This document shows, piece after piece, positions 9,184 through 20,877 of a DNA stretch of 34,327 bases. Position numbers and translations under genes: made by a program. The stretch lies in NCBI GenBank assembly GCA_000934665.2, contig JYFJ02004151.1, forward strand, positions 1 through 34,327, written 5' to 3'. How positions within the stretch are numbered: the first letter of the stretch is position 1; every line of letters begins with the position of its first letter. The stretch is from Catajapyx aquilonaris. Lineage: Eukaryota. The notes under the pieces are model-generated. The model was not told the DNA's origin, searched no databases, and saw nothing but the letters and a program-made list of their open reading frames with translations.

Positions 9184-9199
9184 GGCCCTGAAAAGGGCC
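9184..9199 (-). terminator. Histone 3' stem-loop (psi-H4 copy A)
   Basis: GGCCCTTTTCAGGGCC on the minus strand, downstream of the H4 stop. Confidence 0.95.
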
Positions 9200-9241
9200 G
9201 TTTGTTTTAGTTGAGTTCTACTGGCAGGATCACGCCCTGAT

Positions 9242-9558
9242 TTATCCTCCGAATCCGTAGAGAGTGCGTCCCTGCCTCTTCAAGGCGTAGACGACGTCCA
9301 TGGCGGTGACGGTCTTCCTCTTGGCGTGCTCAGTGTAGGTGACGGCGTCCCTGATCACGTTTTTCAGGAAGACCTTGAGGACTCCGCGGGTCTCCTCGTA
9401 GATCAGGCCGGAGATGCGCTTCACTCCGCAACGGCGCGGCGGGCCAGGCGCCGGATGGCCGGCTTGGTGATCCCCTGGATGTTGTCTCGGAGGACCTTCC
9501 GGTGTCTCTTCGCCCCTCCCTTCCCAAGCCCCTTGCCTCCCTTGCCTCGTCCGGTCAT
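9242..9558 (-). pseudogene. H4: Histone H4 pseudogene (5-nt insertion, promoter deleted)
   Basis: [41 protein letters not shown], then a 5-nt insertion gives a frameshift and TGA at 9421-9423. The C-terminal half (...GRTLYGFGG) is in another frame. Span is 317 nt against the canonical 312. Confidence 0.93.
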
Positions 9559-9778
9559 GTTGAGATATGCATTTTGGACCAAATAGCATCAATTAGCTCT
9601 TCGGAACATTTCAGAAGAAAATGGGCGATCTAATAAAAACATATCCCCTCACCCGAGTACCGGATCCCAATTACAACAATCATAACAAGTTAGTATTGAT
9701 AAGCTAAAAAAAATAGGAAGTTCTAATGATATGGTCGGCATGGAAAATTTTGAATATTGTCAGTTTGTCTGTTGAAGT

Positions 9779-10077
9779 CAAAGAGTTCCGCTATTATATA
9801 ATATAATAATACCTAGAGGAGGTACTCCCTATCCTTTTCCATTAGACAGGCTGAGGCAGTCGCCATCTTGTTGGAGGTCATATTGTTGTTCTAACAGTTG
9901 TCTAGCAACTGGGACAACAACCAATAATGACAACTGGGCGACAATTAGTTCAATAATGTCAGGCGTCCGCCATCTTGTTGGAGGTCATATTGTTGCCTGC
10001 ATTGTTGCCTGCCTCACATTTCAGGCCGAGTACCTCCTCTAGGTGTATACGAGTATATAATATAGCAGAACTCTTTG
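9779..10077. mobile_element. 299-bp MITE with ~50-bp imperfect TIRs and a 2-bp (GT) target-site duplication
   Basis: CAAAGAGTTC...ACCTAGAGGAGGTACTC at left is mirrored by GAGTACCTCCTCTAGGT...GAACTCTTTG at right, with GT on both flanks. Internal 28-bp direct repeat cgccatcttgttggaggtcatattgttg at 9861 and 9968. Confidence 0.8.
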
Positions 10078-10443
10078 GTTACAGTCAGCAGCAAATTGAT
10101 TGGTGTACATAGCTACATAGTTAGGAGGTATCTGGCTTGCTACAAAATTATATTATACAGTATGTACTATATCGGGTTGGCGCGTCTAATATTTACTGCT
10201 ATTATTCTGCGATGTGACTTGTAACACATCAACTTTTTAAAAAAATATTTCAGCTCGAAAGAAGGCCAATTATTGATTGTAACCAGACAATTCAACTTGC
10301 CCGTAAGAGTCTGGAACACAAAATTTCAGTATCTCGATTCACAGTTATAAAAGCTAAAATTAGACAACCTGAGCAATACAATGTATGTAAGTTAGTTTAT
10401 TTCTGCTCTCTCTGTGTTCGCTTTCTCACGTGAATCATGTGGT

Positions 10444-10459
10444 AGCCCTTAAAAGGGCT
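10444..10459 (-). terminator. Histone 3' stem-loop (H2A fragment)
   Basis: AGCCCTTTTAAGGGCT on the minus strand, followed by accaca...tcacgtgagaa. Confidence 0.92.
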
Positions 10460-10501
10460 GTTTAGTTTATAAGAGGCGGTAGAGATGTGTGGACGGTGAA
10501 T

Positions 10502-10555
10502 CTAAGCCTTCTTCTCTGTCTTCTTTGGGAGGAGGAGGGCCTGGATGTTTGGAAG
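10502..10555 (-). pseudogene. H2A: Histone H2A 3' fragment truncated by a LINE
   Basis: Encodes [21 protein letters not shown], followed by a 3' UTR and stem-loop homologous to 15452-15530. Confidence 0.92.
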
Positions 10556-18306: not shown

Positions 18307-18537
18307 CTAAGCCTTCTTCGCGGTCTTCTTTGGGAGGAGGACGGCCTGGATGTTTGGCAGCACTCCGCCCTGGGCGATGGTCACCCCCGAAAAAACCTTG
18401 CTCAGTTCCTCGTCGTTCCTGACGGCCAGCTGGAGGTGGCGAGGGTTCATCCTCGACTTCTTGAGGTCACGGGCCGCGTTGCCTGCCAGCTCGAGCACCT
18501 CGGCGGCCAGGTACTCCATCACGGCCGCCAGGTAGAC
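18307..18537 (-). pseudogene. H2A: Histone H2A, 5'-truncated fragment
   Basis: [80 protein letters not shown]; N-terminal part and promoter absent. Confidence 0.93.
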
Positions 18538-18616
18538 TGATAACAGTGGTGGCCCTGAAAAGGGCCGTTTGTTTAGTTGTCTGGAGGCGATGAGGATGGA
18601 TCTACTTGGAGGAGGT
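18536..18616 (-). repeat. 81-bp inverted copy of the H2B 3' end (stop codon plus stem-loop at 18551-18566)
   Basis: Reverse complement of 18837-18917 and a direct match to 14348-14429. Confidence 0.93.
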
Positions 18617-18902
18617 CCACCCGGACACCGGGGTGTCCTCCAAGGCCATGTCCATCATGAACAGCTTCGTCAACGACCTCTTCGAGCGCATAGCGGCAGA
18701 GTCCTCCCGCCTGGCCCACTGCAGCAAGAGGTCCACCATCACCTCCAGGGAGATCATGAATGCCGTCCGACTCCTGCTGCCTGGAGAGCTGGCCAAGCAT
18801 GCCGTCTCTGAAGGGACAAAGGCCGTCACCAAGTACACCTCCTCCAAGTATATCCATCCTCATCGCCTCCAGACAACTAAACAAACGGCCCTTTTCAGGG
18901 AC
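18613..18902 (+). pseudogene. H2B: Histone H2B, 5'-truncated fragment with lost stop codon and mutated stem-loop
   Basis: [27 protein letters not shown]...KYTSSK; TAG changed to TAT at 18849-18851; stem-loop GGCCCTTTTCAGGGAC at 18887-18902. Confidence 0.92.
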
Positions 18903-20042
18903 ACCACTTTTATCAGTATGAGACATGCACTTGGTATTGCGGCATGTTTTAATTCCAGCTCGTCAAGACAACGAACAAATTTGCACGTAAAGAGAGGCCG
19001 AAAAGTTGAATAATTTCGTGCAATTTACCCCTGCTTTTTCCCGAATGACAAGCGGGGAAGTATATAGTACTGGTACAATAAATATCATGCAACAAACATT
19101 CAGTAAAGGTTGCGTTCTTTTTTCGCAAAAAAAAAACTCATATAAGTGACATAATGCAGATGGTAGTGCCAGATGTAATTGTAACAGCCATTTCTTCGGG
19201 GATTGAGGGCGTGAATTGTACGATATATGCAACACAACTTGGGTTATTACGGACAACAATGGCAGTTAACCAGTTAACCCTTACAATAATTATTTAAAAG
19301 GGTGGTTGTGTCATTATTGATTTAGAGCTGATAGGAAACGATCTATTTATCGATACATGTACAACTTCATTTTTTTCTCATATGAAGACCAGAAGGATCA
19401 GCATGATTGACATATCTGTGGTCCACTGGTGTGATATATATGATAATTATCTTCATGCAGAACAGAATTTGATTTGGGTCGAATAAAACAATGCCAGAAT
19501 ATGTAGCAAAAATGAATTTTTGAAAAGTGCTCTACGGTCTCACCAAGAGGCTTCCACCCCTGAAATGTTCTCGACCAAAAACCTGTTGCAAAACATTAAA
19601 ACTAAGTACAGCTTATCCAGTGAGATCAACATAAAACCGTCCAGTGTTTAGACCGTCTAATATATGCCCCCCGAGGCCCTCCTCGGGTGGTACAACAACT
19701 CAGTTGAAGGTGCATATCCCTCCCCCTAAATGTCTCTTTCTGCCTGTTATGGTACATGGCCACGGAGCCTCTCTGGATATCCATAAAATCAACGATATCC
19801 CGAATTTGTGCTCTGGCCAAATGTCGTACTTCGATAATCATAACCGCCGGAGACTTTTCCAGGGGCTTGTTAGCATTGACAGACTTTACATAAAAATAGT
19901 CTGAAACGTGCAGCATCTCCCTGCACATGTCCCGGGGCCGCCCGTGGGCGAGAACTGTGCTAAAAAGGTCAAAAATATCGACGAGGAAGCACAAAGGGGA
20001 GGAGCTTAGAGCAGCTCTGCCTCTCTCCATTTTCGCGCGCTT

Positions 20043-20076
20043 CCCCTCAGAGGTCCGCGCCTTCGCTATAAAAAGG
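20043..20076 (+). promoter_or_regulatory. H1 core promoter with an H4-box-like element and TATA
   Basis: cccctcagAGGTCCgcgccttcgcTATAAAAA, closely matching the H4 promoter at 17248-17281. Confidence 0.75.
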
Positions 20077-20187
20077 CCACCCGAGAGTGGGCGGCGCTTC
20101 ATTCCTCATCCGGCAGTCGTCGAGGTAGCATCGTCTCCCGCTCGTCCATACTCCGTGCAACCGCTCGCCTCCCCTTGATTCGCCAAG

Positions 20188-20766
20188 ATGACCGATGTGG
20201 AAGCTGCAGCAGCCCCGTCCCAGGGCACACCCAAGAAGGAGGCCACCAAGGCCAAGCCCAGCCATCCCAGCACCTCCGAGATGGTGAAGGGGGCCATAAA
20301 CAGCCTGGACGAGAGAGGAGGCTCCTCCCTGCAGGCCATCAAGAAGTACATCGCCTCCAACTACAAGGTGGACGCAGAGAAGGTGGCCCCCGGTGGCCCC
20401 GCTCCTCAAGAGGTACCTGAAGAGCGCTGTGCTCTCCGGAGGGTTGGTCCAGACCAAGGGGAAGGGGGCCAACGGGTCATTCAAGATCGGAGGGGGAAAG
20501 GGGGAGAAGAAGCCGGTCGGGGACAAGAAGAAGGAGGCCAAGGGGAAGAAGGCAGCGGCGCGGCGGCCAAGCCCAAGAAGGCCACTGATGAGGAAAAGAC
20601 CAAGAAGGCGGCCTCCAAGTCGAAGAAGACTCCCGCTGCCAAACCCAAGAAGTCCCCGGCCAAGGCCACCAAACCCAAGACCCCCAAGGAGCCGAAGACT
20701 CTCAAGACCAAGAAGGCTGCAGCCAAGAAGACCACCAAGAAGGCCCCAGCACCCAAGAAGAAGTAA
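20188..20766 (+). pseudogene. H1: Histone H1 with two mutually compensating frameshift insertions
   Basis: Globular domain start [39 protein letters not shown] 10-nt tandem duplication at 20382-20400 shifts [28 protein letters not shown] into frame 20393. The original frame returns near 20560 for the K/A/P-rich tail. Confidence 0.9.
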
Positions 20767-20861
20767 ATTGCTCCCGATGATGCGATGGGAGTAGGACGAA
20801 GATGCCCGGCCGTCCCACCACCTTTCGGGCTGGCATTTTAGAAAAAGGACTATTTAAAAAC

Positions 20862-20877
20862 GGCCCTTTTCAGGGCC
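20862..20877 (+). terminator. Histone 3' stem-loop (H1)
   Basis: GGCCCTTTTCAGGGCC accca, then a downstream element tcagaaagaga near 20889-20899. Confidence 0.95.

Follow-up and report, generated by a model that had tools for sequence, protein, structure and literature searches.

What kind of histone genes occupies the 34,327-nt contig JYFJ02004151.1 of Catajapyx aquilonaris? The contig in its entirety is hereafter called the window, other contigs are denoted by C and a number, and the genes form a block at 9184-20877, next to an EAF gene. The replication-type histone genes of arthropods are generally regarded as uniform and canonical. The initial annotation of the window had proposed a repeat unit that encodes a specialised variant nucleosome and undergoes birth and death, with intact units elsewhere in the genome. 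We find that a second family of stem-loop histone genes exists beside the canonical set; its existence is not in doubt. The window is a scrambled and mostly broken member of this multi-copy variant family, which is likely still expressed and may alter nucleosomes in particular cells only, with dividing male germ cells as the most plausible candidate. This reading, which draws on analogy, we hold at about even confidence.

We searched the C. aquilonaris genome for histone genes and obtained 59 matches for H3, 66 for H2A, 52 for H2B, 33 for H4, 25 for H1 and 29 for PF00538, all of which are lower bounds. The surrounding DNA of the matches was used, and the histone copies were classified on 80 pieces. 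A gene was called intact if it ran from ATG to stop at the expected length and variant if it was not canonical; for H4 the context served for sorting, and two H4s of canonical units fall in with those of the family. The canonical set comprises 24 intact genes (one H1, six H2A, six H2B, five H3 and six H4) with a single protein per type, the H3 being identical to the solved H3.2. In contrast, the variant family comprises 88 intact genes (6 H1, 24 H2A, 27 H2B, 13 H3 and 18 H4), a number that takes in four outliers, namely one H3 with K27T that falls outside the clade of the family, two H2Bs on long branches and a third H2B grouping with the canonical ones. A further 48 variant copies are broken, one of which, an H3, is probably an H3.3-type relic, and 14 are cut by contig ends or N. 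All of these lie on 53 of the 80 pieces, no two of which have in common a 500-base stretch at 98.5% identity or more. Sixteen more pieces stand outside the census, and five of them carry canonical gene ends, so that canonical copies are undercounted too. The 88 intact variant genes are unbroken single-exon frames, as is typical of replication-dependent histone genes. Most PF00538 matches are family-type H1; one intact canonical-like H1 was found, and the examined stretches of canonical core-histone contigs contained no H1 match. The proposed births and deaths are indeed frequent, with 88 intact against 48 broken copies.

Several other histone genes were noted along the way. The K27T H3 (C3988:14390-14800) is intact, carries many tail changes and is independently derived, although it lies among family genes. 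The two strongly diverged H2Bs (C10860:394-783 and C14352:307-696) are likewise intact, form a branch of their own (support, 100/100) and have imperfect stem-loops. C6085 and C6480 each bear an H3.3-like gene that contains introns and is changed in tail and fold; an ordinary H3.3 is located on C3136. Genes that we take, from their motifs, to be H2A.X-, H2A.Z- and macroH2A-like are present on C5634, C53 and C130, respectively. A TM9SF gene is present in diverged copies next to the family histone genes of C7304 and C6769, and in two more conserved copies elsewhere.

Trees built for each histone type placed the canonical H2As (100/100) and the canonical H2Bs (98/97) in clades apart from the variant family, and 12 of the 13 variant H3s fell into one clade (94/91), while H4 showed no separation. 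The family thus has intact members separate from the canonical histones, as had been predicted. Among the intact variant genes, H3 L109I occurs in 13/13, H2A V9T and T75S/N each in 24/24 and L96F in 22/24; the H2B tail is rewritten, and the acidic-patch motif DEE[LD] of H2A is kept in 24/24. Near-fixed differences from the canonical genes amount to 11 replacing and 2 silent changes. None of the 13 H3, 24 H2A and 27 H2B proteins is identical to its canonical counterpart, and the 24 H2A proteins all differ from each other. Fourteen of the 15 differences in the intact window H2A, and as many of the 15 in the window H3, are also seen in further intact genes. In the assembled sequence, intact paralogs therefore share the window residues, which are not those of the major canonical histones.

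Some of the motifs singled out by the initial annotation need revision. In H2B, SKR (18/27) and I.NAV (4/27) occur in intact variant genes and in no canonical gene, but AESSR is not a variant mark because it is present in all six canonical H2Bs of the genome. In H2A, DL[KE]KSR (10/24) and SR.NP (13/24) are likewise absent from canonical genes; the joint motif DLKKSR.NP is found only in the window's own gene (1/24). H4 had been described as canonical, and indeed no change is family-wide, but only 2 of the 18 intact family H4 proteins match the canonical sequence exactly. The window H3 lacks the features of CenH3, a highly divergent tail and an extended loop 1; it is 136 amino acids long and aligns to H3.2 without gaps and with 15 changes. 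In searches for outside relatives, no full-length match above 83% to the variant H2B was present among the best 120 of 7992 scored, none above 83% to the H3 tail region among the 27 passing of 7993 scored, the GVYANG motif of that tail being found in none, and a 27-base H1 pattern had no match in metagenome contigs.

The regulatory sequences are conserved as well. The 24 family H2A/H2B promoters form a clade of their own against five canonical-type promoters (100/100), with 86% identity within the family and 65% between the two groups. TATA and CCAAT motifs are present in 24/24 family H2A/H2B spacers, and only 3 of 34 columns of the TATA, CCAAT and cap motifs are variable among them, compared to 87 of 131 intervening columns (p=7e-10). 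These motifs are alike in variant and canonical units. At the 3′ end, the full 6-pair stem is kept in 83 of the 88 intact variant genes, and GAGA, the purine-rich downstream element, lies 8-30 nt 3′ of the stem-loop in 77/86.

Selection was judged from the observed rows. The pairwise ratio of replacing to silent substitution rates (dN/dS) is 0.01-0.02 for pairs of canonical genes and 0.18-0.63 for pairs from the variant family, although these values are not independent and the alignment of the H2B tail is uncertain. Of the private changes in the family, 164.5 are replacing and 113.5 silent; in the canonical set, the numbers are 1 and 86. For the private changes of the family, dN/dS is below 1 in H2A (0.37-0.44, p<=2e-4) and H3 (0.45-0.54, p 0.002-0.02). 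Leaving out the four outlier rows, the 32 amino-acid changes carried by at least five copies are conservative (BLOSUM +0.59 vs -0.48 for random changes, p=1e-4), while the 109 private ones are nearly random (-0.28, p=0.09). Methylation decay as a source of the changes was rejected, as there is no excess of CpG transitions (p=0.54). Short of proving present-day expression, this pattern is what one would expect of a family that is used but redundant: a common core under selection, only weak selection on any one copy, and frequent death.

All five histone types with stem-loops are indeed found in the window, in which 11 stem-loop-like sites were detected at up to 2 mismatches; two of them reach the Rfam RF00032 gathering score. 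From left to right, the order is H4(-), H2A remnant(-), LINE, H2B(-), H2A(+), H3(-), H4(+), half H2A(-), partial H2B(+) and H1(+), and the genes on the left are inverted relatives of those on the right (81-97% identity). Only one H2A (15077-15451) and one H3 (16609-17019) are undisrupted, as the initial annotation had stated. The first H4 (9184-9558, minus strand; stem-loop 9184-9199) has a 5-nt insertion that shifts the frame, and its own promoter is lost, since the 3′ flank of an H3 directly adjoins its ATG. The variant H2A remnant (10444-10555, minus; stem-loop 10444-10459) retains the last 17 codons and is cut by the LINE, a 5′-truncated non-long-terminal-repeat retrotransposon (long interspersed nuclear element; 10556-13823, plus) with an unbroken 1029-amino-acid frame, a reverse transcriptase domain and a (CAAA)n tail, which sits at a rearrangement break. 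The first variant H2B (14363-14784, minus; stem-loop 14363-14378) is frameshifted by a 13-nt deletion. It diverges from the intact H2A (15077-15510 including the stem-loop at 15495-15510, plus; 124 amino acids) across a variant-type bidirectional promoter (14785-15076) with two TATA, two CCAAT and two cap motifs. The intact H3 (16537-17019 including the stem-loop at 16537-16552, minus) and the second H4 (17354-17729, plus; stem-loop 17714-17729), which is frameshifted by a 4-nt insertion, diverge from a second bidirectional promoter (17020-17353). The annotated divergent promoters were thus both located. The second H2A and second H2B are partial: a 3′ half of a variant H2A (18252-18539, minus; stem-loop 18252-18267) and the 3′ part of a variant H2B that has lost its stop (18536-18902, plus), ahead of which its own 3′ end and stem-loop are duplicated in inverted orientation (18536-18616). 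The family-type H1 (20188-20877, plus; stem-loop 20862-20877) has two compensating frameshifts that scramble the globular domain.

Other features of the window include a degenerate histone stem-loop (16113-16128, minus) with no coding region ahead of it and remnants of DDE transposases (24062-25464 and 28344-29047; PF13359, PF13843), the former in a stretch that continues from H1 and is common to C5279. Site-specific insertion of the LINE was unsupported, no other histone contig having matched it, and the idea of retrocopy-rich surroundings was rejected.

The gene arrangement speaks against a single specialised repeat unit for one coordinated nucleosome: gene order varies, all H2A proteins differ and subtypes recombine. 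Two modules recur stably, the H2A/H2B pair, divergently arranged in 27 cases (24 of them with spacers of 279-297 bp), and the H3/H4 pair (12 cases); beyond these, H2A faces H4 in 10 cases and H3 in 8, and H1 stands in two orientations (9 and 4). The fixed order and near-identical units of a homogeneous tandem quintet array are thus not seen. The intact units predicted elsewhere exist as intact variant paralogs and as intact quartets on C9309 and C4187, but no contig holds an intact quintet. Also among the best assembled units are C5823, with ten intact genes in mirror order and without H3, and C10478, with H1-H2B-H2A and an H4 cut by the contig end. Rather than one repeat unit or one variant nucleosome, several recombining subtypes make up the family.

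The window itself is a patchwork. Its 13.8-21.5 kb part mostly follows C4187 (91-100% in tiles where C4187 leads), which has the same H1 lesion and H2A/H2B fusion, and its left part follows C4210 and C2582. C4187 was rejected as an allele of the window because it has no match on the EAF side. The 3′ part of the window H3 is 100% like C2582, and the neighbouring promoter tile is 100% like C5831. The H3-proximal promoters of the window, C5831 and C11254 are 92-94% like that of the canonical unit C1483 (92% for the window), while C2582 has a family-type one. This patchwork ancestry suggests that promoters and coding tracts were exchanged, canonical units included, unless single junctions are misassembled.

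K27 of H3 is the site of the Polycomb mark. The changes of the intact window H3 include F78V, T80L and L109I and a tail tract of R26H, K27P, S28G, A29V, P30Y, T32N, G34A and K37R; K4, K9 and K36 are kept. K27P is present in 2 of the 13 intact variant H3s, those of the window and C2582, which have the tail tract in common, and the H3 of C11254 carries an intermediate tract with K27 intact. A search for the GVYANG pattern returned these three genes and one match on C8982, which we attribute to chance. The steps of the tail, from canonical to GVYANG and then HPGVYANGA, thus still coexist in the genome. Compared with a family H3, 11 of the differences within codons 25-37 are replacing and 2 silent, while the rest of the gene has 7 replacing and 22 silent ones (p=5e-4, for a region chosen after seeing the data), an excess that suggests selection for the new tail. 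The K27P genes of the window and C2582 differ by only two silent changes in codons 26-135 and are therefore recent copies of one event. A piece of the last EAF exon lies within the histone cluster of C2582 (22702-22929), between the 3′ ends of an H3 and an H2A, which links the histories of the two K27P loci. V78/L80 of H3 accompanied G56R of H4 in 5/5 linked pairs compared to 2/6 of the others (p=0.06); the DNA pattern search for G56R had missed two G56R genes. We did not accept this pairing, as it is confounded by linkage.

How might such a family work? In the reading that we favour, it would supply variant H1, H2A, H2B and H3 together with near-canonical H4. From established histone biology, bidirectional TATA/CCAAT promoters, a stem-loop and a downstream element would yield non-polyadenylated mRNAs in S phase. 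Copy redundancy would weaken selection on each copy, while family-wide changes would be retained in the H2A tail, L1/L2 loops and docking region, in the rewritten H2B tail, and in H3 around K79 and at L109I. Gene conversion may carry new tracts, such as the H3 tail without K27, among copies and promoters. Germ-line use is proposed by analogy with Oikopleura, and the cell type is the least certain element. Two further genes (C4602:3145-3570 and C1593:19572-20100) encode an H1-type winged-helix domain and, across an apparent intron, an Arg/Lys-rich tail with the look of a protamine-like sperm protein. These H1-derived arginine-rich genes suggest replacement of histones in sperm, in which case the variants would act earlier.

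Several observations weigh against this reading. The private changes in the H2B core, H4 and H1 are inseparable from neutral ones (dN/dS 0.58-0.87, p 0.15-0.66), and the ratio of replacing to silent changes is equal for widely shared and private changes (p=0.89). Among the 136 scorable variant copies, 48 are broken, and almost every intact copy encodes a distinct protein, as would be expected from drift no less than from specialisation. The agreement of the two K27P loci reflects recent copying, so that the idea of K27P held by selection at both is unsupported. Moreover, most H1 genes found are of the family type, which argues for general over germline-only use.

The last point leads to the view that the family works as a bulk source of histones for rapid S phases, in the embryo or in all dividing cells; it would perhaps outnumber the canonical set and provide most of the H1, and its residue changes would be tolerated, not specialised. 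The excess of intact variant genes, the distribution of H1 matches and the promoter motifs held in common with canonical units are consistent with this view. It would predict a constraint like that of the canonical genes, which the numbers of private replacing and silent changes contradict, and the canonical units, interrupted at identical gene ends, are probably collapsed in the assembly. We consider bulk supply rather unlikely.

We also doubt that these genes are orphons, an amplified halo of copies that can be dispensed with and drift under relaxed selection, with motifs left over from a functional ancestor and upheld by gene conversion. Isolated, disabled and neutral copies, as expected of orphons or pseudogenes, describe most histone copies of the window, which is largely debris, as well as the private changes in H2B, H4 and H1, whose dN/dS is not below 1; the random look of private changes, the broken copies, transposon insertions and inversions point in the same direction. 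This description does not fit H2A and H3, with dN/dS below 1, or the promoters, whose motifs are far more conserved than adjacent columns among family copies; nor do the conservative shared changes and the lack of a CpG transition excess agree with it.

An ampliconic expansion driven by conflict over germline chromatin, involving a sex chromosome, a B chromosome or a driver, has a precedent in the mammalian X-linked short H2A (PMC5880237) and would account for the mirror-image arrangements of C5823 and the window, the conversion tracts and the fast protein change. However, the clusters have ordinary neighbours such as Tpr, Sec24 and an F-box gene, Tpr having only an identical twin in the genome, and we regard this scenario as very improbable. 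That the diversity and patchwork are assembly artefacts (haplotigs or chimeric contigs across repeats), as the 20,583 contigs, the identical twins of neighbouring genes and the 100% identity tiles that switch partner inside the window might hint, is most improbable, since the 53 variant pieces lack long near-identical stretches in common, the substitutions are codon-structured and clade-forming, and chimerism would explain single junctions at most but not a family.

The EAF gene beside the cluster (3680-7101, also given as 2239-7101, minus strand) was confirmed by PF09816 and by best matches of 53-64% identity, led by insects and branchiopods, as for an arthropod with no close relative among the proteins searched. 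It is a faster-evolving genomic duplicate of the EAF gene on C1164 (15666-20999), to which 33 of 33 outside EAFs are closer than to the window copy. Its exon-2 dN/dS of 0.29 and coding indels of about 288, 18, 27 and 9 nt, seemingly in frame, suggest that it may be a working, shortened and fast-evolving paralog.

How does the variant family compare with known systems? Histone orphons are scattered, decaying copies; here, many copies are intact and under some selection. Sea urchins have early, late and sperm sets, parallel replication-type genes with their own H1, H2A and H2B; in C. aquilonaris, H3 is altered too and the set is heterogeneous. The closest parallel is Oikopleura dioica, in which testis expression was measured and the 47 loci include 15 male-specific variants; strongly changed isoforms are commonly male-specific, keep stem-loops and are changed around K79 (PMC3156773). 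Like its male-specific clusters (H3t.1/H3t.2, H2At, H2Bt, H4t and H1t), the family consists of intronless stem-loop genes of all five types in small clusters with divergent promoters, and its H3 is changed around K79 (F78V and T80L/N). Unlike them, it belongs to an arthropod, numbers about 150 recombining copies, many of them dead, and has no fixed change in H4 (PMC3156773). The testis-restricted short H2A variants of mammals resemble it in fast protein change, gains and losses, and gene conversion, but they are stand-alone, shortened and on the X, whereas the family has full-length clustered genes of five types with replication-type 3′ ends (PMC5880237). Arabidopsis has an H3.15 without K27 and, in sperm, an H3.10 that resists methylation of K27, with expression and effect shown; a tail unable to carry the mark is predicted here from K27P, which is of unrelated origin and limited to the two loci (PMC7410336). 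The quintet arrays of Drosophila and pea aphid have the same five gene types and divergent H2A/H2B and H3/H4 pairs, whereas the present family has no fixed order, is inhomogeneous and encodes non-canonical proteins (PMC4244043). The legends of the Strigamia paper describe one quintet plus small single-class clusters, and the portion of its supplementary files that was checked gave no hits. Parallel variant histone sets, in Oikopleura, mammals and sea urchins, and H3s that lack K27 or resist its methylation, in plants, are thus already known. No arthropod variant family of this kind was found in the open literature searched, a coverage that leaves out most subscription papers.

The family could be, and we suggest this only tentatively, a parallel germ-line chromatin kit of an arthropod: a hundred copies of replication-coupled variants that stay distinct despite promoter exchange, with a K27-less tail that spreads by gene conversion and would erase Polycomb marks in germ-cell divisions, like plant H3.10/H3.15. 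A second set, larger than the canonical one, with promoters of its own and changes in H1, H2A, H2B and H3, illustrates how histone variants can originate inside the clusters, with the intermediates still in the genome. Should the K27P H3 be expressed, it would test naturally, in an animal, whether histone replacement in S phase can dilute Polycomb marks.

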